Below the pieces are notes generated by a model. That model was not told the origin of the DNA. It ran no database searches and saw only the letters and a list, made by a program, of their open reading frames with translations. Made by a program: the position numbers and the translations under genes. A stretch of DNA of 64,000 nt from a virus (lineage: Duplodnaviria > Caudoviricetes): IMG/VR virus record IMGVR_UViG_3300033066_002255. The stretch is one strand, 5' to 3'. Each line of letters starts with the position of its first letter. Position 1 is the first letter of the stretch. Below are positions 1 to 64,000 of this stretch, piece by piece.

Positions 1-33
1 ACTTTTTTCAGCATATATTCTCAATTTTCCCAT
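1..33 (-). CDS. 5' end of a late (probably structural) gene running off the left edge, MGKLRIYAEKS...
   Basis: ATG at 33 on the minus strand, open to position 1, with a TATTTATA motif at 47-54 (-) upstream. Confidence 0.6.
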   Translation of the reverse strand, partial: MGKLRIYAEKS

Positions 34-109
34 TACAAATTTTTATTATAAATAGGTTGTGATATTATTTTTTTGCCATAAACAAGGCTCTTTATTTTTT
101 TTGGTGCTC

Positions 110-117
110 TATTTATA
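110..117 (+). promoter_or_regulatory. Late-promoter-like TATTTAT(A/T) motif (representative of about 22 copies)
   Basis: Also at 47(-), 8088, 11082, 12854(-), 16923(-), 17023, 19107, 21347, 27756(-), 31506, 32691, 34584, 35394, 37349, 40515, 41044, 42370, 45461, 52155(-), 61754(-), 61817; each just upstream of a start on the same strand. Confidence 0.75.
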
Positions 118-134
118 TTTTAAAGATATTAATT

Positions 135-521
135 ATGGCTATAGGTATAAAATTTCCATTTCAAGAAAGTTTTGAGGGGGGTGTTTATAGATTTACAAAA
201 ACTACTCCTGAAAAAGTCAGGACTAACCTCATTGCTTTGCTTACTCTAAAAAGAAAACAAAGACCAATGAGAAATAACTTATATTCTCCTCTGTGGGATT
301 ATATTTTTGAACCATGGGATGAAATTAGTGCAGATAAACTTAAAGGTGCATTATTAGAGAAAATAGAAATGTTTATGCCAGAAATTACTGTTGAAGATAT
401 TGTTTTTAACTTTGATGAAAGCACAAGCGTTCTTACTACTAAAGTTATATACTCAATAATAGAATTAGCTGGAGCAACTGATTTTATTGAAATAGATGTT
501 CAAATTCAAAACGAAGATTAA
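135..521 (+). CDS. Baseplate wedge subunit, gp25/GpW-like
   Basis: IGIKFPF...NLIALLTLKRKQRPM...LWDYIFEP...FMPEI pattern; 128 aa; directly upstream of a gp6-like gene. Confidence 0.85.
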   Translation: MAIGIKFPFQESFEGGVYRFTKTTPEKVRTNLIALLTLKRKQRPMRNNLYSPLWDYIFEPWDEISADKLKGALLEKIEMFMPEITVEDIVFNFDESTSVLTTKVIYSIIELAGATDFIEIDVQIQNED

Positions 522-40533: not shown

Positions 40534-41007
40534 ATGAAATTTAAGGATTTATATTTAAGCATTTTAAGTGAAAATGAGAATTTTTTCTACGTAGATACAG
40601 ATTGCATATCTGATATCTTGGATGTAACTATTAAAAAATCAGAAGACTATGTAAAAATTGATTTCGCTACCAACTATGGTAAAAAAGGTCAATTAGTAGT
40701 AAAATATTCAAAATTTTTAAATTGGTATCTTAATCATATCAATGAATTTCCTGATGTTTTTAAATCCTTTACAAAAGAATATATTGCAAAATCTAAACAG
40801 ACTCCTGAGCTAGAAGAAGAGCCTGTTACAGAAATTGTTGATGAAGAAGGGAATTTAATTTCAAATGATGACAAGCCAAACAATTCAACAAATACAATGG
40901 TTGGCTCTAAAAATACTTGGGATTTAGAAAAAGTTTATAAATCAACTATACCAAAAAGTATTAGGTTCTACAGTGGGGACCTCGGCATCGGCATAATAAC
41001 CTGGTGA
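40534..41007 (+). CDS. Late hypothetical protein; target gene of cassette 1 (recoded 3' end)
   Basis: MKFKDLYLSILSE leader; last 14 codons strongly GC3-rich; ends in TGA. Confidence 0.75.
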   Translation: MKFKDLYLSILSENENFFYVDTDCISDILDVTIKKSEDYVKIDFATNYGKKGQLVVKYSKFLNWYLNHINEFPDVFKSFTKEYIAKSKQTPELEEEPVTEIVDEEGNLISNDDKPNNSTNTMVGSKNTWDLEKVYKSTIPKSIRFYSGDLGIGIITW

Positions 41008-41069
41008 TTGGAGTTATTATTTGGTAAATTCATTTTTATTTACTATTTATTATAAAATAGTTTTTAAAC

Positions 41070-42368
41070 ATGAGCTACAAAAGAAAAATAATTGGTACAT
41101 CCTTAGAAGAAATAAGGTTTTTTTATTTCATTAGACAAATATTTCCAGAAGCACAAAATAGATTTGTTTTTATTTATGATAAAAATAAAAGTTTTGAATT
41201 AGATATTTTTATACCACACCTAAATCTTGCAATTGAATATGATGGTGTGTATTTTCATTCTTCAAAATCAATGATAAAAAAAGATTTAAAGAAGAATGGT
41301 ATATGCAAAAAAAATGGTATAACACTAATCAGAATAAGAGAAAAGGGGTTAAGTAAAATATTTTTTCATGATATAGAATATAACTATCAATTAAAAAATA
41401 GTCACAAGGAATCTTTTAAAGGGCTTTTATGCTTTATAAAAAGTGAGTTTAATCTAAATCAATTTGAACTTAAATCAATAACAGAATTTGACTATGATAA
41501 ATTTGAAATAAGTCCTGAAGTATTGACACTTTTTAGGGAAATAGAATTTAGTAAATCACTAAAGGCTATTAATCCAAAACTATCAGAAGAATGGAATGTT
41601 GATAAAAATAATGGATTACTTCCTGATAATGTTAGCGCAAACACCGAACTTCTTGTGTGGTGGAAATGTAAAACTTGCAAAAATGAATGGCAAGCTACAG
41701 TTCATGAGAGAAACAGGGGATGGTATAATTGCATAAAATGCAGGTCTCTTGGTATTAAAAACCCAGAATTATCCAAAGAATGGCATCCAAAAAAAAATGC
41801 AGACTTAACCCCGTTTGATATTACATATGCTTCAAATAAGAAATATTGGTGGATTTGTGAAAATGGACATGAATATTTAACTTCTGTTCATACTAAAAAT
41901 AAAGGTGCTGGATGCCCATATTGTTCAGGGCATAAATTATACGAAAACAATTCTCTCGCTAAAATCAACCCAAAACTTTCAAATGAATGGCATCCAATAT
42001 TAAATGGTAATAAAACACCAGAAAATGTATTTTCAAGCTCAAGAACAGAAAAAGCTTGGTGGCAATGTTCAAATATTAAAGAGCATGCTTGGGAAGCTAA
42101 AATACATTCCAGGCACCAATTAGGCCATGGTTGTCCGTATTGTGATGGTAAAAAAGTATCAAAAGAAAATTCGTTGGCTCAAAATAGGCCAGAATTAGCA
42201 AAACAATGGCATCCAGCAAAAAACAATGAATTAACGCCTGAAAATGTAACAATTTCTTCTGGCAAAAGAGTTTGGTGGCAATGTAATTGTTGCAACCATG
42301 AGTGGCAAGCTAATATAAATAACAGAGTAAGGACTTCAGGGAAGTGTCCAAATTGTAGAAAAAAATAA
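41070..42368 (+). CDS. Putative homing endonuclease: Vsr/DUF559-like PD-(D/E)xK domain + four treble-clef zinc-ribbon (DUF4379-like) repeats
   Basis: ELDIFIPHLNLAIEYDGVYFH...LIRIRE; repeats P.L..EWH..KN..LTP..V...S....WW.C...HEW...CPYC. Confidence 0.8.
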   Translation: MSYKRKIIGTSLEEIRFFYFIRQIFPEAQNRFVFIYDKNKSFELDIFIPHLNLAIEYDGVYFHSSKSMIKKDLKKNGICKKNGITLIRIREKGLSKIFFHDIEYNYQLKNSHKESFKGLLCFIKSEFNLNQFELKSITEFDYDKFEISPEVLTLFREIEFSKSLKAINPKLSEEWNVDKNNGLLPDNVSANTELLVWWKCKTCKNEWQATVHERNRGWYNCIKCRSLGIKNPELSKEWHPKKNADLTPFDITYASNKKYWWICENGHEYLTSVHTKNKGAGCPYCSGHKLYENNSLAKINPKLSNEWHPILNGNKTPENVFSSSRTEKAWWQCSNIKEHAWEAKIHSRHQLGHGCPYCDGKKVSKENSLAQNRPELAKQWHPAKNNELTPENVTISSGKRVWWQCNCCNHEWQANINNRVRTSGKCPNCRKK

Positions 42369-42380
42369 CTATTTATTTAT

Positions 42381-42947
42381 ATGATATTAAGTGAATCATA
42401 TAAAAAGAGACTGCAAGAGCTTTCAGGTATTCAAGATGATACATATTCTTCATACAAAGGACTTGAGCCATATCAAAAAAGAAAAGAAGATTTCATAAAT
42501 TCAATAAAAAGCTTTTCAGATATTAATGATGATAAAATAAAAGAATTTATTTCTTACTTTGGGTATGAAGGATTTAATAGCGAAGAAGAAGCATATATCG
42601 ACTTGAAAGAAAAAATATCTTTTTACAAGGAAATGCCTAATCCAGTTATATTATATCGTGCAATTGGTGTAAAAAACAAAAAGATGATAAAAAATGACGA
42701 CTTAGGAGAGCATTATACACCTTATAAATGGAATATTGATACTGATATGTTAATGTCAATTGGATATGAAAATTGGGATGAAAATACGAAGCCTTATATA
42801 ATGGAGGTTTCAGTGCCGCATTCTGAAATAGATATTATTCAAACTATTATTCAAAATTTATCATTTCCAAATGAACACGAAATAAATTTAAAAAACAGCG
42901 GAAAAGGTGCTAAGTTTATAAAAGCATATAAATTAAAAGGATTTTAA
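42381..42947 (+). CDS. ADP-ribosyltransferase-like protein (R-S-E type) with leader MILSESYKKRLQELSGI
   Basis: ILYRAI...LGEHYT...YIMEVSVP...NEHEINL (R / aromatic-T / E-x-E layout). Confidence 0.5.
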   Translation: MILSESYKKRLQELSGIQDDTYSSYKGLEPYQKRKEDFINSIKSFSDINDDKIKEFISYFGYEGFNSEEEAYIDLKEKISFYKEMPNPVILYRAIGVKNKKMIKNDDLGEHYTPYKWNIDTDMLMSIGYENWDENTKPYIMEVSVPHSEIDIIQTIIQNLSFPNEHEINLKNSGKGAKFIKAYKLKGF

Positions 42948-42962
42948 ATAATAACATGGTAA
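42948..42962 (+). pseudogene. Displaced original 3' end (IITW*) of gene 40534..41007
   Basis: ATA ATA ACA TGG TAA versus ATA ATA ACC TGG TGA at 40993-41007. Confidence 0.7.
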
Positions 42963-55832: not shown

Positions 55833-56993
55833 TTAAACAATTCCACTTGAATCATTACTGTTTTGAGATTTATTATTTAAGTTTGACAAAGCATCTTTAG
55901 CCTTTTGTATATCTGCATCTGATACTGTACCGCTTAAATCAAGAGATAATGCATCTTCTCCTATGTTGTTACCACTTACTACTTCAGATAAGTAACTATC
56001 ATTTGTAAATACTCCAGCACTTCTATACATTGCTCTTTTTCCAAGAGAAGAACTTAAGGAATTAAAAGCAAGAGTAGAGCCAACACCTGAAGAAACATAA
56101 TTAGAAGTATTTTGATAAGCAATACCTAAATTACTTGCTGTCATAACAGCATTTTGATTTGCTCCTATATATGTAAATGTCCACATTTTAGTAGCTTCAA
56201 GACTTTCAATTAAATCTTTAATTGAAGATGCGTTATATTCTTTTGAAGCGTTTTCAAAACCATCTGTTAATATAACTACATATACATCTGCTTCTCCAGA
56301 ATCTATTTTAGAAGAAATTCTATTTTTTAAATTCTTAACACTTATTCCAATTGCATCATGTAAAGCTGTAGTTGCATCAGGTCTATAATCTTCTTCAGTA
56401 AGCTTTCTTAATTTATCTGAAGATACATTTTCAAATAAAGGTGTAATCTCATCATCAAATTTAATTATGCTTACAAAATATTTTTGGTCAGGATATTTTT
56501 CACTAAGATTTTTTATTGTTTGAATTTGTTCATTCAAACCTCCAAGTGTTTCTTTTTTTGCCCCTTCCATAGAACCACTTTCATCTACAATTAAAAGATA
56601 GTGAGTTTCTTTAGGTGTAACAGTTGTTGTAGTAGTCGTTGTAACAGTTGTTGTTGTAACAACTTTCTTCACTCTATTTAAAACTTTTCTAGCAGCTTTT
56701 TTACCTTTTTTAGGAGCTGCAGTTTTCTTAGGAGTTACTTTCTTTTTAGGAGCTGCTTTCTTTTTAGGAGCAGCAGTCTTTTTAGGAGCTACTTTCTTTT
56801 TAGAAGCTGCAGTTTTCTTAGGAGCTACCTTCTTTTTAGGGGCTGCTTTCTTTTTAGGAGCAGCAGTCTTTTTAGGAGCTACTTTCTTTTTAGAAGCTGC
56901 AGTTTTCTTAGGAGCTACCTTCTTTTTAGGGGCTGCTTTCTTTTTTGGAGCAGCAGTCTTTTTAGGAGACTTTTGTTTTGTTTTTGCTTTCAT
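55833..56993 (-). CDS. Histone H1-like (KKAAP repeats) - Thr linker - von Willebrand factor A fusion
   Basis: About 15 KK(K)xAP hexamers, poly-Thr tract, LIVDESGSM MIDAS, TALHDAI, VILTDGFEN, YIGAN. Confidence 0.85.
   Translation of the reverse strand: MKAKTKQKSPKKTAAPKKKAAPKKKVAPKKTAASKKKVAPKKTAAPKKKAAPKKKVAPKKTAASKKKVAPKKTAAPKKKAAPKKKVTPKKTAAPKKGKKAARKVLNRVKKVVTTTTVTTTTTTTVTPKETHYLLIVDESGSMEGAKKETLGGLNEQIQTIKNLSEKYPDQKYFVSIIKFDDEITPLFENVSSDKLRKLTEEDYRPDATTALHDAIGISVKNLKNRISSKIDSGEADVYVVILTDGFENASKEYNASSIKDLIESLEATKMWTFTYIGANQNAVMTASNLGIAYQNTSNYVSSGVGSTLAFNSLSSSLGKRAMYRSAGVFTNDSYLSEVVSGNNIGEDALSLDLSGTVSDADIQKAKDALSNLNNKSQNSNDSSGIV
56761..56940. repeat. Perfect 2 x 90-bp tandem repeat within an 18-bp-unit array
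   Basis: 56761-56850 is identical to 56851-56940; partial copies on both sides. Confidence 0.9.
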
Positions 56994-59489: not shown

Positions 59490-59512
59490 AATAAAATGCT
59501 ATTCTTTTTTTG

Positions 59513-59543
59513 CAAATATAATACAAAAAAATAAAATAACAAA
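59513..59543 (-). promoter_or_regulatory. Bacteroidota-type sigma70 promoter TTTG-N19-TATATTTG
   Basis: Exact -33/-7 consensus upstream of 59489. Confidence 0.75.
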
Positions 59544-59567
59544 TTTTATGCGGGATTATTTTTTGAT

Positions 59568-60746
59568 TTACTCAGTTACAACTTTAATTATACAGTCACA
59601 CATCCTATTAATTTCTTCTTCTGTTAACTTAGGATGATTAGGTATATACATACCGCACTTATCGACTTTATTTACATTTTGTAATTCATTTCTACCGTAT
59701 TTTTTTATGTAAAAAGGCTGTGTACCCATAGAGCCACAAATAAGAGGTCTACATTCTACATTATTTTCGATTAAAGCTTTTGCAATTGCATTTTTTTCTT
59801 CTTCAGAGCTTGCAATTATTGGTATACAAAAACTTGCAGTAAAACTTCCTTCAACTTCTTGAGGAAACCATGTATATGGAGATAATTTTTCCTTAAAAAT
59901 TTGAAAGTTTTTATTTCTTTGAGCAATCATTTCATCAACCTTTTTTAGTTGTTCAATACCAATAACTGCTTGTAAATCTGTAGCTCTAACATTAAAGCCA
60001 GGAACATAAAAAGTATATAATGCAGAAAAATCATCTATTCCCCATTGCTCTCTTAATTCTTTTTGTCTTTCAGTATCAAGGTCTCTGTCCCAACCATGAC
60101 TTCTTAATTGCTTAAGCATATCATACACAGCTTTATCATTTGTACATATCATACCACCTTCAATGGTACTCATAGTATGTCCAAAATATGTAGAAAAAGA
60201 AGACATAAGTCCAAAATTTCCAAGTTTTATATCATTATATTTTGTACCTTGAGATTCGCAATTATCTTCTAATAATATTACACCATATTTTTTACAAAGC
60301 TCAACAATCTCATTCATTTTAGGAGAAAGTCCTAAAACTGAAACAAGAATCATTGCAGATGGCTTGTAGTTTTCAAAAATAATTTTAAGATGTTCTATGT
60401 CTACAGCTAAATTAGTAGGGTCTATATCTACAAGTATAGGGTCAAAACCTAATTGCATAACTGGAGCTAAATCTGTTGCCCAGCCAAGAGATGGTACTAC
60501 AATTCTTTTATTTCTAAGTTTATACATTTCAATTAATGCTGCAAGCATTAATAAATTTGCAGATGAACCAGAATTAACAAATACAGAATATTTACAACCA
60601 ATCCATTTAGACCACATTTCTTCAAATTCACGAACTTTATTTCCCTGAGTTAATCTTGGATATGTCTTTAACCATTCAATCAAATTGTCTATGTCGTCTT
60701 TGTCAATTGTATCTTTAACTAAAGTAATCTTTTCTGGATTTGTCAT
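59568..60746 (-). CDS. colD: DegT/DnrJ family PLP enzyme, ColD-like GDP-4-keto-6-deoxymannose 3-dehydratase
   Basis: VNSGSSANLL, EDNCES, STYFGHTMSTIEGG (His at the PLP-Lys position), RSHGWDRDL, PGFNVR. Confidence 0.75.
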   Translation of the reverse strand: MTNPEKITLVKDTIDKDDIDNLIEWLKTYPRLTQGNKVREFEEMWSKWIGCKYSVFVNSGSSANLLMLAALIEMYKLRNKRIVVPSLGWATDLAPVMQLGFDPILVDIDPTNLAVDIEHLKIIFENYKPSAMILVSVLGLSPKMNEIVELCKKYGVILLEDNCESQGTKYNDIKLGNFGLMSSFSTYFGHTMSTIEGGMICTNDKAVYDMLKQLRSHGWDRDLDTERQKELREQWGIDDFSALYTFYVPGFNVRATDLQAVIGIEQLKKVDEMIAQRNKNFQIFKEKLSPYTWFPQEVEGSFTASFCIPIIASSEEEKNAIAKALIENNVECRPLICGSMGTQPFYIKKYGRNELQNVNKVDKCGMYIPNHPKLTEEEINRMCDCIIKVVTE

Positions 60747-61741
60747 AAATCATTTATTTTTTTATTTATATTATTTTTTTCTATAAATTCGTTATAAGCC
60801 TTTGCGGCTTCTAATTCAGAATTATATGAACCAATATAATTATGTTTTCCATTAAAATAAACAGAAGATTCCCATTTTTGAGGCTTTTTTTTAAAGCTTA
60901 CTCCAAAATATTTAGAAGTTCTTTTTTTGTTAATATCTATTTTTTCCCAATTTGGGATTATGTTTAATTGAGCACTATTACCATATAATTCTAAAGCCTT
61001 TTTGTTATACGCTATCGCAGCATGAATTTCTTCTTTAAAGTGTCCTATGATAATAGATTTTCTATTAAATCTTACTGTTGCTCTCCAGAGTTTATCTTTA
61101 TTATCAATATAACTAACTCCAATATATTTTGAGCTTGTGTTTGAATTTTTAAAACCTAAAAGAGTTTTGGAAATTTTATTTTTTGTATCTTCTGAAGGCG
61201 GTAATCGTCTACTTTGAGATTCGCTCATTTTTATTTTAGATTCTGTAGAATGAGAACGACCTAAATTAGCTTTAGAAATTTTTTGACTTGTTTGCTTTTT
61301 AATGTCTTCTGGAATATTTTTATATGATATTCTTCTATTTTCTTTTTCTTGTTCAGATACTTTTCGTCCTAAGCATTTTCCCTTATTTGAATTGCCTATT
61401 TTATTTTTAGTTTCTTGAGACAATATCCTACCAGAAACGCCCTCTCCTCCATCTGTTGAATTAACTAAAATTCCCATGTTTTTATCTGCTCTACCAAAAA
61501 GTTTAATATAGAATTTTTCAGAAAAGTTACATAACTCTTCATTTTTACAAATCTTAATTAATTTAATTTCTGGGATTAAACTTTGTTTTTTAAGAGAATT
61601 AAGCCAATTGGTTTTATGAGTTTTTGTTTTATCTTTGAGATGACCATTAAACAAACGTCTATTTAAATTTTTAGTTGTTTTACCTACATATCTAACCTCA
61701 TTTGTTCTTGGGTCTATTAAAAAATATATTTTATATTCCAT
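60743..61741 (-). CDS. GIY-YIG homing endonuclease with NUMOD3-like repeats and two AP2 domains
   Basis: ATG 61741; KIYFL..YVGKT..RR..H..E..N; SQETKNKI/STESKIKMS; SKYIGVS...EIHAAIAYN and SKYFGVS...ELEAAKAYN. Confidence 0.88.
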   Translation of the reverse strand: MEYKIYFLIDPRTNEVRYVGKTTKNLNRRLFNGHLKDKTKTHKTNWLNSLKKQSLIPEIKLIKICKNEELCNFSEKFYIKLFGRADKNMGILVNSTDGGEGVSGRILSQETKNKIGNSNKGKCLGRKVSEQEKENRRISYKNIPEDIKKQTSQKISKANLGRSHSTESKIKMSESQSRRLPPSEDTKNKISKTLLGFKNSNTSSKYIGVSYIDNKDKLWRATVRFNRKSIIIGHFKEEIHAAIAYNKKALELYGNSAQLNIIPNWEKIDINKKRTSKYFGVSFKKKPQKWESSVYFNGKHNYIGSYNSELEAAKAYNEFIEKNNINKKINDL

Positions 61742-61827
61742 GTTGCATTTTATTATAAATAGAATAAAAATTCCCAAACTGACAAAAGGCTTAAAATTTA
61801 AAACATTTTTTTGAAATATTTATTTAA

Positions 61828-62286
61828 ATGAATATAAGGAAAATTATTAGAGAAGTTTTGACTAATCATATAAAGAATTTAAATAAACCATATATAGTTA
61901 ATATTAATGGTGAAATGTTTTATCACCAAACCAATTGTAATAATATAAAATCCATAAAAGATAATGGCTTTAAAAGTGATTTACATAATGGTCAAGCAAG
62001 ATTTACTCATGGAGTATATTTTTTAAATCATCCAGAAGGAAGATATGGAGATTGTACGTTACAAGCTAATATTTATGGAAATTTTTTAGATTTCAGAGAT
62101 GAAAATGATATTTTGGGAGATAAATGGATTAATTTTAGAGACTCTTATGAATGGGATAATTATATAGATTTAACAATTAAAATGAGACAAGACAATAAAG
62201 ATATAGATGGTCTTATTTTTGATAATCTATTAGTTGTTTGGTATCCAGAAAAATGTATTAAAAATATTTCTGAATATAATTTGTAA
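61828..62286 (+). CDS. ADP-ribosyltransferase-fold protein (H-Y type) with leader MNIRKIIREVL
   Basis: FYHQT...SIKDNGF...GVYFL...YG...DGLIF..LVVWYP. Confidence 0.55.
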   Translation: MNIRKIIREVLTNHIKNLNKPYIVNINGEMFYHQTNCNNIKSIKDNGFKSDLHNGQARFTHGVYFLNHPEGRYGDCTLQANIYGNFLDFRDENDILGDKWINFRDSYEWDNYIDLTIKMRQDNKDIDGLIFDNLLVVWYPEKCIKNISEYNL

Positions 62287-62294
62287 ACATAAAA

Positions 62295-62393
62295 TTAAAA
62301 CAAGTTGTTCTCAATTAAATTGTCAATATCATCTTTATCAATGGTATCCTTAACTAAAGGAATTCTTTCAAGGTTTTCATTATTTTCTGACAT
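62295..62393 (-). pseudogene. Stub of the original colD 5' end (MSENNENLERIPLVKDTIDKDDIDNLIENNLF*)
   Basis: 16 residues identical to ColD residues 9-24; lies in operon position right after the fcl-like gene. Confidence 0.9.
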
Positions 62394-62440
62394 AATATAT
62401 TTTTTTAAAAAATAAGAATGAAAACCAATAAAGTAAATAA

Positions 62441-63358
62441 TTAAATAGAATTATTATCTAGCAAATATTGATAAGTAGTCTTTATTCCTTGTTCTAATTC
62501 TATAGATTTAAAATCAGGAATAACCCTTTTTAATGTTTCGATTGAAACATCTTTTCTATATTGGCCATCTGGATAGCTATCATCAAATTGTATAGTTAAT
62601 TTTTCAGCATCACAAGCTCTTAAAGCAATTTCAGCCATTTGTTTGATACTAAGATTTTCTTCTGTAGCAACATTCATATTATCAGTTATATCATTCTCCA
62701 AGCAATGATATATAACCTTAGCCAAATCATCTGAATGCATAAACTGCCTTAAAGGATTGCCTGTTCCAAATAATACAATTTTATCATCACCATTCTTTTT
62801 TGCAATATGAATTTTTTTAATTAAAGCTGCAATAAAATGACTATTATCTCCATATTTATCATGTTCACCATAAAGGTTGCATGGTATTAAATATTGATAA
62901 TTGGTGCCATATTGTTTGTTATAAGCATCTATTTGAACTGCTTGAGTTCTTTTTGCATAACCATAAGAAAAATTTGTAGGAGTTGGTGGTCCCTTATGTA
63001 AATCAGTCTCAACCATAGGATATGAATCTACTACATCAGGATATATACAAGTACTTAATATACCAATTAATCTTTCTACTCCATGTCTATAAGCGGAATC
63101 AACAACCAAAGTATTCATCAAAACATTGTCAGTAAAATATTCTGCAGGCTTATTGATATTATCTATAATGCCACCAACTTTTGCAGCGAGATGAATTACA
63201 GCTTCTGGTTTATAAAATTCAAACATAGCTTCTATATTTTCTGCAACAGTTAAATTAAATTCATTAGATGATAAAAACACAGCGGTGGGCATAAGTTTTT
63301 GTAATGATTTGCCAACCATGCCTGAGCCTCCTGTAACTACAATTCTTTTATATTTCAT
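62441..63358 (-). CDS. fcl: GDP-L-fucose synthase / ColC-like reductase
   Basis: ATG 63358; VTGGSGMVG, HLAAKVGGI, STCIYP, YGYAKR, PCNLYG, GTGNPLRQF. Confidence 0.9.
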   Translation of the reverse strand: MKYKRIVVTGGSGMVGKSLQKLMPTAVFLSSNEFNLTVAENIEAMFEFYKPEAVIHLAAKVGGIIDNINKPAEYFTDNVLMNTLVVDSAYRHGVERLIGILSTCIYPDVVDSYPMVETDLHKGPPTPTNFSYGYAKRTQAVQIDAYNKQYGTNYQYLIPCNLYGEHDKYGDNSHFIAALIKKIHIAKKNGDDKIVLFGTGNPLRQFMHSDDLAKVIYHCLENDITDNMNVATEENLSIKQMAEIALRACDAEKLTIQFDDSYPDGQYRKDVSIETLKRVIPDFKSIELEQGIKTTYQYLLDNNSI

Positions 63359-63360
63359 AA

Positions 63361-64000
63361 TTAAATTTTTATCCAACCTTCACAATAAAGGTCATTTGTA
63401 TTATGATTTTCATATGCTGGACCAAACCATTTTGACGGAGCGATAACTTTTTTTTCTGGATTTGCATTTAACCATGCAGCCCACCAACTAAATGTAGAAT
63501 TACAAATAATATTATCATTACAATGACTCATAATATATAAATCTTCATAATCTTTATTCCCCTCTATAAATACAAACTTCTCTGGTAAATCTGGGAAATT
63601 TGCTTTACACCATGCGATATCATCTGAGAATATTAAGAATACAGTATCTTTGGGCATTTGTTTAATAGCCTTCATATAATAATTCATATTTTGCGTTGGA
63701 TGATGGTCTGGTGAATTTAAATAATCACCTCTTCTAACATGAATAGAACAAGTGTGTTTTGTTTCTAATATATTTTTTATTTCTTCTTTTATGTCAACAT
63801 CGTAAGATGTAAATAAATTTCTTATTTCATCTTCATATTCTTTAAAGTATTTTTCAGTTTGAAAATAGCCATAAAGTAATATGTTTTTATCTGGGGAGTC
63901 TTTTAATTCATTATAATGAAATCCACTTTCATTTATCTGTATTCTTCCGTTTCCTTGTGGTGTGTGATACAAATCAATATTTTTGAATATGTTATCATTA
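63361..64000 (-). CDS. GT11 alpha-1,2-fucosyl/colitosyltransferase (5' part outside window)
   Basis: GYFQTEKYF, SIHVRRGDY, FSDDIAWCK, NSTFSWWAAWL. Confidence 0.9.
   Translation of the reverse strand, partial: NDNIFKNIDLYHTPQGNGRIQINESGFHYNELKDSPDKNILLYGYFQTEKYFKEYEDEIRNLFTSYDVDIKEEIKNILETKHTCSIHVRRGDYLNSPDHHPTQNMNYYMKAIKQMPKDTVFLIFSDDIAWCKANFPDLPEKFVFIEGNKDYEDLYIMSHCNDNIICNSTFSWWAAWLNANPEKKVIAPSKWFGPAYENHNTNDLYCEGWIKI

Follow-up and report, generated by a model that had tools for sequence, protein, structure and literature searches.

We found that the colD gene of this phage has two beginnings. The working gene starts with a foreign head that is linked to a homing endonuclease gene, and the native head survives as a short stub behind fcl. 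We consider it likely that the homing endonuclease co-converted the foreign colD head and that one-sided repair stranded the native start as the stub. The original prediction held that a cassette had replaced the start of colD with a synonymously recoded copy. The foreign, endonuclease-linked head and the native stub stand; the recoding does not, and ORF152, the gene between stub and endonuclease, is no fixed part of the unit. Table 1 lists the features of the locus. The window, meaning the whole 64,000-nt stretch that was analyzed, contains no tRNA genes.

Table 1. Features of the colD locus in the window.
Feature	Position	Strand	Basis or remark
fcl-like NAD-dependent epimerase/reductase	62441..63358	-	Pfam Epimerase, E 1e-47; last glycan-operon gene before colD
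Native fcl-colD spacer (old colD upstream region), intact	62394..62440	-	Nearly the same in cassette-free L016
Stub, native colD codons 1-28 (MSENNENLERIPLVKDTIDKDDIDNLIE)	62310..62393	-	27/28 residues match the P0001 and P0140 starts
Left junction, 23 nt unrelated to colD	62287..62309	-	Between the stub and the end of ORF152
ORF152, predicted ADP-ribosyltransferase-fold protein gene	61828..62286	+	Structure matches, conserved residues
Divergent control region of ORF152 and endonuclease	61742..61827	.	Block invariant in six endonuclease-carrying lineages
Free-standing homing endonuclease, 332 aa	60743..61741	-	Pfam GIY-YIG, NUMOD3, AP2
ATGA overlap of endonuclease stop and colD start	60743..60746	-	Bases common to both codons
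Imported colD codons 1-24 (MTNPEK...LIE), replacing the stub	60675..60746	-	Codon comparison with L017, L033 and the stub
Working colD/E1-like sugar 3-dehydratase gene, DegT family, 392 aa	59568..60746	-	Pfam DegT_DnrJ_EryC1, E 2e-68

Native and imported heads of colD

The stub lies in a 32-codon ORF on the minus strand (62295-62393). Stub codons 13-28 (62357-62310) and colD codons 9-24 (60722-60675), both on the minus strand, encode the same peptide, LVKDTIDKDDIDNLIE. Recomputation reproduced the predicted identity of 40 out of 48 nt over these 16 codons, and all eight differences are silent third-position changes (AAG/AAA, ACC/ACA, GAT/GAC three times, ATT/ATA, TTA/TTG and GAG/GAA). The likeness begins four codons before the tract (GAA A-- ATT -CT), and the duplication spans about 60 nt (62369-62310 versus 60734-60675). 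A blastn search within the window and a simulation agreed with this comparison. The duplicated head was recovered with 83% identity over 59 nt (E 7.6e-13), and the next best match had an E value of 0.19. Silent changes make up 17% of the possible single-base changes in the tract, and the chance that eight of eight are silent is about 8e-7 (0 of 300,000 simulations). After codon 28 the stub ORF continues into four codons unrelated to colD (NNLF-stop). Homology of the stub to both L016 and the working copy stops after the GAG at 62310, in line with the proposed insertion near codon 28 of the old gene.

Comparison with relatives identified the stub as the old start of colD in its proper place, as the original prediction had it. 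In cassette-free L016, the trx-to-fcl operon is the same, the 48-nt spacer has the same sequence and an uninterrupted colD starts MSENKENLERIPLVKD (also given as MSENK). The stub is colinear with L016 8001-8083 and differs from it at 8 of 72 nt in aligned codons; it differs far more from endonuclease-carrying alleles. Relatives L005 and L034 likewise have a single colD directly after fcl with the same spacer, and L020 retains the spacer to within about 3 nt of the old ATG. At the DNA level even the closest cassette-free relative reaches only about 80% identity, so none of the alleles compared is a true empty site for the window lineage. No high-identity empty site was found in the Logan contigs, which were short and of low depth. 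One of them possibly joins 60590 to 62325, with a 24-nt side that is too weak to call an empty-site allele.

The stub and cassette structure is real and not an assembly artifact, since two further assemblies from other samples, L026 (JGI) and L027 (Logan), carry the same arrangement at 99.9-100% identity. Sequencing runs from riverine, freshwater, wastewater and activated-sludge metagenomes contained the stretch. A DNA search of GenBank phages with 59500-63400 gave no match, and a protein search of the same phages returned only relatives below 40% identity. IMG/VR held four distant colD loci, whose divergence is too great for assigning the two heads, and exact-pattern scans of IMG/VR for the fcl-colD spacer and the endonuclease upstream block gave 0 matches.

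The working head tracks the endonuclease. The endonuclease gene lies before colD in seven lineages (the window, L017, L019, L020, L021, L022 and L024) and is absent at colD in L016, L034, L005, L001-L004 and L007. In the six other carriers the linked colD starts MTNPEK or MINQEK, and each conserves the ATGA overlap predicted between endonuclease stop and colD start, which is present in the window at 60746-60743. Among the alleles checked, all eight with the short start had the endonuclease or a remnant of it, compared with none of the seven with the long start, in agreement with the claim that the working start was imported with the endonuclease. Comparing colD 5' ends, as the original prediction had suggested, we found MTNPE without the endonuclease in L033 and L008. 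These two contigs retain about 90 nt of the endonuclease 3' end before the MTNPE start and are thus relics, not naive genomes. The prediction therefore survives the refuting condition set for it, cassette-free relatives with the MTNPEK start. The left junctions vary among lineages. That of the window falls at old codon 28, that of L020 at about position -3 relative to the old ATG, and those of L008 and L033 directly at the fcl stop.

The colD gene itself is a mosaic. Residues 1-50 are 100% identical to P0006, P0007, P0009 and P0010, and the remainder is closest to P0001. Informative residues are of the donor type at 9 of 9 positions up to residue 39 and of the P0001 type at 10 of 10 positions over residues 69-104. 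At the DNA level, 0 of 24 nt differ from L017 in codons 1-8, and codons 25-40 differ at 0 of 48 nt from L033 and 1 of 48 from L017; the gene body is about 18-20% different. The imported tract probably ends somewhere from codon 39 to codon 69 (about 60630-60540). Its right end is uncertain because the QGNKVRE block (codons 25-40) also occurs, with 3 of 48 nt different, in L034, which does not have this endonuclease; a firm placement of the crossover between codons 39 and 69 was weakened by the same finding. From codon 6 on, L008 and L033 differ, despite 98% identity of the DNA upstream. The region has therefore been reshuffled by later recombination, and not all switches need be homing events.

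Phylogeny and diversity profiles agree with repeated acquisition. In a tree of the colD body (residues 70-392), the window is sister to cassette-free P0001 (91% identity, support 87/87), P0008 groups with P0020 (100/99) and P0017 with P0023 (99/90). This tree requires at least four gains of the endonuclease-type short start, and at least four changes even when only strongly supported branches are counted. For the element itself, several gains and at least one loss are shown. Among the seven endonuclease-carrying alleles, pairwise diversity stands at 0.01-0.06 over the final 130 nt of the endonuclease gene, reaches 0.085 in codons 1-8 of colD and climbs to 0.2-0.3 by codons 25-44. This minimum at the endonuclease 3' end, rising into colD, is a co-conversion gradient.

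The hybrid colD, a foreign head joined to a native body, is an intact 392-aa DegT-family ORF. Its translation shows the motif G-H-T-M-S-T-I-E-G-G. The ColD/E1-type hallmark is a DegT fold with His replacing the PLP-binding Lys, and the His of this motif is a candidate for that residue. JGI names relatives CDP-6-deoxy-D-xylo-4-hexulose-3-dehydrase. For annotation, the 32-codon ORF is best labeled a gene remnant, and colD an intact though chimeric gene. The fcl ORF is open from TTG 63376; relatives use an ATG that gives 305 aa, and 305-aa orthologues are called in L016, L020 and L026. The glycan operon of relatives also holds a second GIY-YIG gene and a LAGLIDADG gene.

The endonuclease, its control region and ORF152

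We corrected the start of the endonuclease from TTG 61777 to ATG 61741 (MEYKIYFL, 332 aa), the start used in all orthologues. The protein begins with a GIY-YIG domain, continues with NUMOD3 linker motifs and carries AP2 DNA-binding repeats in its C-terminal third. When Pfam gathering cut-offs were applied, all three scored above them (PF01541 GIY-YIG 28.7 bits against 22.6, NUMOD3 27 against 20.4 and AP2 38.6 against 33.3). The protein also matches PHROG homing/HNH endonuclease families, and two AP2-like repeats match WRI1 (PDB 7wq5). Orthologues are 75-92% identical, with dN/dS ratios of 0.09-0.22; at the sequence level the gene is under purifying selection. KIY 4-6, YVG 18-20, R28/R29, E75 and N94 are invariant in six orthologues, and we take the conserved GIY-YIG residues to be equivalent to the catalytic residues of I-TevI.

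We infer that the putative endonuclease cuts colD alleles that do not have the endonuclease gene. Two or three haplotype switches fall at the codon 24/25 boundary, and our best guess for the predicted cut site is this boundary (about 60675). The original prediction had placed the nuclease site within the shared 48-bp tract. Under the one-sided-repair model the break would instead lie, tentatively, at or 3' of the end of the stub rather than inside the tract.

The endonuclease and ORF152 diverge from a short control region. It contains a conserved minus-strand block, CCTTTTGTCAGTTTGGGAA (61789-61771) and CTATTTATA (61762-61754), and on the plus strand TATTTAT lies just before the ORF152 ATG. 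TATTTAT is found within 45 nt upstream of 20 of the 61 ORFs of at least 100 aa, compared with about 2.5% expected. The TATTTATA element and the ATGA overlap are kept in all endonuclease-carrying lineages, and transcription of colD together with the endonuclease from the conserved TATTTATA element (61762-61754) is plausible. A promoter and terminator consensus scan of 60500-62600 was uninformative overall: sigma-70-like sites were fewer than in shuffled sequences, and the one terminator-like site, a weak one, lay within the endonuclease gene.

ORF152 matched nothing in Pfam or PHROG, and its AlphaFold2 model has a pLDDT of 90. Its best structural matches are all ADP-ribosyltransferase (ART) domains, namely the diphtheria toxin catalytic domain, PARP1 and MbcT (Z 7.6-9.6 over 117-127 residues); Foldseek gave nothing at E ≤0.001, with a best E of 4e-3. 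H33 and Y64 are invariant among homologues and would fit the first two positions of the ART triad, H-Y-(E/D/Q), whose third residue was not located. The predicted ART assignment rests on these second-look Z-scores and the conserved residues. ORF152 also has a possible capsid-targeting leader.

The idea that ORF152 is a conserved part of the mobile unit was not borne out. Homology among endonuclease-carrying lineages ends 50-115 nt upstream of the endonuclease ATG, and the neighbors beyond differ by lineage: a lipoprotein-like ORF in L020, a YopX gene in L022, a DnaB fragment in L021 and a 75-aa ORF in the relics. In the corresponding place L024 carries a gene that is distantly ORF152-like, hence ART-like (E 6e-5). 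Homologues of ORF152 in related phages are single opposite-strand genes at unrelated loci, and the 23 nt of the left junction do not match the flanks of these homologues. We did not find a donor with ORF152 beside the endonuclease and no stub, so ORF152 may have arrived separately. In each lineage a different opposite-strand gene abuts the conserved control region. On that basis, we tentatively suggest, as a possibility we rate as unlikely, that the left flank of the endonuclease unit is a gene-capture and promoter-trap site with a conserved divergent control region of about 110 nt. If so, repeated one-sided repair would couple the endonuclease to an ever-changing set of accessory or host-takeover genes and ferry them between phages.

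Origin of the arrangement

We propose the following series of events. A free-standing GIY-YIG/NUMOD3/AP2 endonuclease gene resides just upstream of colD in a group of AT-rich freshwater phages and would spread by cleaving colD alleles that do not carry it. Repair would copy into the cut genome both the endonuclease gene and the first codons of the neighboring donor colD. The recipient would be the window phage or the donor of its left arm. On the right side of the break, homology would have guided repair inside colD. On the left side no matching donor sequence would have been available, and the end would have been joined illegitimately, leaving the native 28-codon start and its upstream spacer as a dead stub. 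One-sided repair of the kind described for T4 td intron homing would leave homology on one side only and microhomology at the other junction (here 62309/62310). About 1.6 kb, comprising ORF152, the control region, the endonuclease and the foreign colD head, now separates the stub from the native body. The two heads would differ only at silent sites, since both had evolved as working genes in different phages beforehand. The stub could now serve as left-hand homology, with which the cassette could move by two-sided homing into fcl-colD genomes such as L016. The identities of the two heads are shown by the comparisons above, and the one-sided repair route is what we infer from the arrangement of the locus.

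Three other histories could produce two heads. A tandem duplication of the colD 5' end within the genome, followed by divergence in place, would account for direct repeats about 1.6 kb apart. We find it hardly credible, because a truncated copy is not under protein selection and yet all eight differences are silent (P about 8e-7), and because the working head matches endonuclease-linked heads elsewhere (identical in protein, nearly so in DNA) while the stub matches cassette-free heads. That a second colD paralogue was deleted and left the stub behind is very improbable. Nothing beyond the existence of two heads speaks for it. Against it, a single colD directly follows fcl across the same spacer in each of L016, L005 and L034, and the colD body of the window falls in the same 90% cluster as alleles with stub-type heads. 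The third history involves two events, in which homing or recombination brought the endonuclease and the head, and insertion of ORF152, later or independently, as a mobile moron with a TATTTAT element of its own made the duplication and the stub. The scattered opposite-strand homologues of ORF152 fit this history, as do the end of homology 50-115 nt upstream of the endonuclease and the different neighbor in each lineage. Weak homology with L017, L021 and L022 nevertheless spans the ORF152 promoter and first codons (to about 61837-61857); together with the ORF152-like gene of L024 in the same place, it indicates that an ORF152-type gene was probably already linked to the endonuclease. Insertion of a moron alone would also leave the foreign origin of the duplicated head unexplained. 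We regard the two-event history as improbable and retain co-conversion with one-sided repair.

A separate question is what the silent differences mean. They could represent adaptive recoding of the nuclease recognition site for immunity, maintained by an arms race. Within the tract the window differs at 9 of 48 nt from both L017 (flanks 0/24 and 1/48) and L033 (flanks 2/24 and 0/48). Between L020 and L021 a count by eye gives 12 differences over the 51 nt of codons 6-22, against an endonuclease dS of 0.08, and four of the five Asp codons in the tract are GAC, compared with 18% GAC genome-wide. Over the seven endonuclease-carrying alleles, however, diversity does not peak in the tract but climbs steadily through it with distance from the endonuclease; codons 9-24 look like a hypervariable island in three pairs, and the pooled profile does not show one. 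No nucleotide in the tract separates the classes. GAC and GAT vary with and without the endonuclease, and GAC as a mark of endonuclease-linked alleles was rejected, as it is also common in L001 and L004, which do not carry the gene. Immunity recoding is therefore doubtful to us, and describing the start as synonymously recoded was an overstatement. The silent differences appear to be ordinary standing allelic divergence, not endonuclease-specific recoding.

Comparison with known homing systems

For a single homing endonuclease, the locus offers an unusually full natural series that includes naive alleles, seven invaded lineages and two decayed relics, with a displaced native head that marks one junction and co-conversion tracts of varied length. 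It makes testable, for a GIY-YIG-AP2 enzyme, where the cut falls (predicted at colD codon 24/25 or immediately beyond), how far co-conversion extends and how the cycle of invasion and decay runs. The series also points to selfish nucleases reshuffling a phage glycan operon that is thought to modify the virion.

The locus is a case of a known kind of mobile element and not a new type of system. As in T4-type intronless homing by Seg and Mob enzymes, an intergenic endonuclease gene is present or absent at one fixed locus, flanking markers are co-inherited by co-conversion, and the enzyme is modular, with a GIY-YIG nuclease and a separate DNA-binding region. One-sided events with illegitimate repair have been documented for T4 (PMC2988022). 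Here, AP2 repeats would do the binding, a sugar-dehydratase gene within a virion-glycan operon would be the target, and the evidence comes from population genomics instead of crosses. Classical Seg and Mob loci have no displaced gene head, whereas a 28-codon head is retained in the window.

The closest parallels to the displaced head are the mORF gene hybrids of fungal mitochondria, found in atp6 of Allomyces macrogynus and in atp6, atp9, cox2 and nad3 of Glomus (PMC3630166). There too, an endonuclease ORF carries a foreign end of its target gene that takes over, the native end stays adjacent as an unexpressed or dead duplicate, and divergence is greater in the foreign end than in the native end (PMC3630166). 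The colD locus is a mirror image of these hybrids, because a 5' head was swapped and not a C-terminus. It also differs in that the endonuclease is a separate cistron joined through the ATGA overlap, not an in-frame fusion, and in that it occurs in a bacteriophage and not a mitochondrial genome. HEG islands are phage exchange regions bounded by endonuclease genes, in which AP2 serves as a DNA-binding module (PMC10448857). The colD locus resembles them in that nuclease genes mark recombination boundaries between otherwise diverged phages. HEG islands involve HNH-AP2 and T5orf172 proteins and regions of more than 10 kb, whereas the colD locus involves a GIY-YIG-AP2 protein and a tract of tens to about 200 nt.

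The duplicated colD start

The window carries the start of colD twice, once in the working gene and once in a short ORF (the stub) that follows fcl, with an endonuclease gene between the two. An upstream TTG was rejected as the endonuclease start, since every orthologue begins at the equivalent of the ATG at 61741. The DegT-family protein contains G-H-T-M-S-T-I-E-G-G when read in translation, the His form that would be expected of ColD/E1-type 3-dehydratases.

Features of the colD region, listed from the GT11 gene to colD
Feature	Coordinates	Strand	Remarks
GT11 glycosyltransferase gene		-	before fcl
fcl-like epimerase/reductase gene	62441-63358	-	
Spacer, fcl to stub			47 nt
Stub	62295-62393	-	32 codons
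ORF152	61828-62286	+	152 codons
Gap between ORF152 and endonuclease gene			86 nt
Endonuclease gene	60743-61741	-	332 codons; GIY-YIG, NUMOD3 and AP2 domains, each over Pfam cut-offs
colD (DegT family)	59568-60746	-	392 codons; ATG overlaps endonuclease stop as ATGA

The same 16 residues are encoded by colD codons 9-24 and stub codons 13-28. Our recount agreed with the original prediction that these tracts match at 40 of 48 nt and that all 8 differences are silent third-position changes. Because only 17% of the possible single-base changes in the tract are silent, the chance of eight in eight is ~8e-7 (0 of 300,000 simulations). Similarity starts 4 codons ahead of the tract, and ~60 nt are duplicated. 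The colD head is the stub's sole significant internal match in the window (E 7.6e-13; next best E 0.19). Two further assemblies from different samples contain the whole arrangement at 99.9-100% identity, which rules out an assembly artefact as its origin.

We compared the window's ColD with 120 close homologues. The best overall match (91%) was P0001, whose start, MSENKENLERIPLVKD..., is one change from the stub sequence; P0140, another member of its cluster, starts MSENNENFER. The P0001 contig, L016, has the same operon as the window (thioredoxin, glycosyltransferases, methyltransferase, GT11 and fcl), and there fcl is followed by a 48-nt spacer nearly identical to the window's and then by an uninterrupted colD, with the endonuclease absent between them. 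colD also comes immediately after fcl in contigs L005, L007 and L034. L016 aligns to the window in two pieces, one covering fcl, the spacer and the stub as far as 62311 and the other covering colD from 60734 onward, which overlap by 59 nt of L016. These comparisons bear out the proposal that the stub occupies colD's old place, and they indicate that it is the native start of the gene.

Origin of the working start

Endonuclease orthologues (75-92% identical) adjoin colD in six other lineages (contigs L017/L018, L019, L020, L021, L022/L023 and L024/L025) with an identical TTATGA junction. colD has a short start, MTNPEK or MINQEK, in all six. Among the alleles checked, the endonuclease or a remnant accompanies 8 of 8 short starts and 0 of 7 long starts. 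Residues 1-50 of the window's ColD are identical to those of P0006, P0007, P0009 and P0010, which are 74-90% identical further on, and the rest of the protein is closest to P0001. At sites that differ between P0001 and P0007, the window has the P0007 type at 9 of 9 up to residue 39 and the P0001 type at 10 of 10 over residues 69-104. A maximum-likelihood tree built on residues 70-392 pairs endonuclease-linked with cassette-free proteins: the window with P0001 (support 87/87), and P0008 with P0020 (100/99) and P0017 with P0023 (99/90). On this tree the endonuclease-type start requires 6 changes; counting only strongly supported branches leaves at least 4. These patterns indicate that the window's ColD is a mosaic and that its working start arrived with the endonuclease. 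Codons 1-24 are the only part certainly replaced. Where the imported tract ends on the right is less certain than the residue pattern implies, because L034, which lacks this endonuclease, shares the block formed by codons 25-40 with 3/48 nt different.

The original prediction also held that the insertion had replaced the colD start with a synonymously recoded copy, and the recoding was not upheld. The stub and the working copy differ silently at 8 of 16 codons, the same level as over the full gene in comparisons of these lineages (0.38-0.45). Both GAC and GAT occur at the tract's Asp codons whether or not an allele carries the endonuclease, and no single position in the tract distinguishes the two classes. 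It is improbable that the silent differences reflect an arms race: the tract is more diverged than its flanks in some allele pairs, but the pooled diversity profile has no peak there. Over seven endonuclease-carrying alleles, pairwise nucleotide diversity is 0.01-0.06 over the final 130 nt of the endonuclease gene, 0.085 in colD codons 1-8, 0.14-0.20 in codons 9-24 and 0.2-0.3 in codons 25-44. This gradient is the pattern expected if the nuclease gene carries variable flank lengths into new genomes. Purifying selection acts on the endonuclease (dN/dS 0.09-0.22 at dS 0.08-1.4), and its GIY-YIG motifs are invariant among orthologues.

Contigs L008 and L033 contain decayed endonuclease copies and are not naive genomes. 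Their gene order is fcl, an opposite-strand 75-codon ORF, ~90 nt matching the endonuclease 3' end with an internal deletion, and colD with an MTNPE start. Cassette-free relatives with the MTNPEK start and GAC codons had been named as evidence against the original prediction; these two MTNPE-start contigs retain the remnant and so do not count against it. Endonuclease loss occurs as well as gain. Upstream of the colD head the two are 98% identical, yet they differ from codon 6 on (KITLVKD...QGNKVRE in L033, RIPLVKD...KGPKTIE in L008), and thus the head still recombines after invasion.

Junctions and the gene beside the endonuclease

Homology among endonuclease units stops 50-115 nt upstream of the endonuclease ATG, just past a conserved block of CCTTTTGTCAGTTTGGGAA then CTATTTATA. 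The upstream neighbor is ORF152 in the window, a distant ORF152-like gene in L024, a small ORF plus a lipoprotein-like ORF in L020, YopX in L022, a DnaB C-terminal fragment in L021 and the 75-codon ORF in the relics L008/L033. ORFs directly abutting the unit are all on the opposite strand; the small ORF of L020, farther out, is on the operon strand. In the window the left junction falls after old colD codon 28, in line with the predicted insertion point; it lies ~3 nt before the old ATG in L020, with the native spacer kept, and right at the fcl stop in the relics. The variable junctions and varied neighbors fit a one-sided repair, in which the colD side of the break would be repaired by homology and the other side joined illegitimately, as known from T4 intron homing (review PMC2988022). 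The break would then lie at or 3' of the stub end. The window and L021 differ at 5/72 nt through codon 24 and then at 21/48; L020 and L033 show 1 difference through codon 24 and diverge from codon 30. Because these two independent haplotype switches and the stub end coincide, the codon 24/25 boundary (~60675) is our best guess, from three events, for a cleavage or recombination hot spot.

The L021 fragment (2-256, minus strand) matches DnaB_C at profile positions 146-219 of 255 (E 3.5e-36). It lies on the strand opposite to the endonuclease and starts abruptly, ~150 nt from the start of that gene, and the contig ends there; the fragment represents either captured filler DNA or one half of a split helicase gene. 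In L022 (500-1000), a non-coding stretch of ~560 nt separates YopX from the endonuclease unit. Its GC is much above that of its surroundings and it has hairpin-forming parts; it could be a structured RNA or a remnant of another element.

ORF152 had no family match in Pfam or PHROG. Its predicted fold is confident (pLDDT 90), every top structural match is an ADP-ribosyltransferase domain (Z up to 9.6), and His33 and Tyr64 are invariant. Its homologues are single opposite-strand genes at other loci in related phages, so ORF152 is no fixed cargo of this endonuclease. Weak homology of the window to other endonuclease units extends into the ORF152 promoter and first codons, and this, with the relative in the same position in L024, suggests that an ORF152-type gene already lay beside the endonuclease in the donor. 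We favor a single event over two separate ones, though not strongly. The homologues P0122-P0124 start M-x-LSESYK-x-R-x-QEL-x-G, an unrelated 188-aa ORF (42381-42947) in another cassette, Cassette 1, has nearly the same leader (MILSESYKKRLQELSGI), and ORF152 itself starts MNIRKIIRE. A common N-terminal leader that ends in (I/L)-x-E resembles the capsid-targeting sequences of injected T4 internal proteins such as Alt. ORF152 could be an ADP-ribosyltransferase that is packaged and injected.

Expression, other nucleases and known systems

All endonuclease lineages share an unchanged CTATTTATA element upstream of the gene (61762-61754 in the window), TATTTAT occurs <=45 nt upstream of 20 of the window's 61 long ORFs (~2.5% expected), and the ATGA overlap, described in the original prediction, is universal among endonuclease lineages. 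These signals make it plausible that colD is co-transcribed and translationally coupled with the endonuclease. Many start codons in the window have TATTTAT 5-15 nt ahead of them, with no evident Shine-Dalgarno-like sequence. Together with previously reported TTTG-N20-TATATTTG promoters, a window GC of 28% and freshwater or wastewater sources, this pattern suggests a Bacteroidota (Flavobacteria-like) host.

Read from the window alone, Cassette 1 (40534-42962) has a mirror-image footprint, at a 3' end. In gene 40534-41007 a GC3-rich run precedes the ending ...ATA ATA ACC TGG TGA. This ending is repeated immediately downstream (ATT GGA GTT ATT ATT TGG TAA), and a third copy (ATA ATA ACA TGG TAA, 42948-42962) follows a 432-aa nuclease (41070-42368; four DUF4379 treble-clef zinc fingers) and the 188-aa ORF. 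Other selfish nucleases occupy the relatives' glycan operon (L034 3295-4038 and 7012-8622, also L035 and L036; L017 2616-3446; L020 9581-10414). They include a 247-aa GIY-YIG/NUMOD1 gene overlapping the fcl start and a LAGLIDADG/NUMOD3 gene flanked by colD and the gene for GDP-mannose dehydratase. In L034 the dehydratase gene encodes just 208 aa and could be truncated or split. Just downstream of the window's glycan and DNA-transfer genes, 55833-56993 (minus strand) encodes a 386-aa protein with a long N-terminal KKxAAPKK-type repeat array and a poly-Thr/Val stretch; by eye, its C-terminal region resembles a vWA domain.

Nuclease genes at exchange boundaries, and nucleases with AP2 as their DNA-binding module, have been described (PMC10448857). 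Free-standing phage homing endonucleases share the mechanism proposed here, with co-conversion of flanking markers (PMC2988022). In the mORF "gene hybrids" of fungal mitochondria, an endonuclease likewise brings a foreign gene end and leaves the native end as a duplicate; the C-terminus is replaced there, whereas the gene start is replaced in the window, as a mirror image (PMC3630166). The colD locus is a well-documented case of an already known kind of element.
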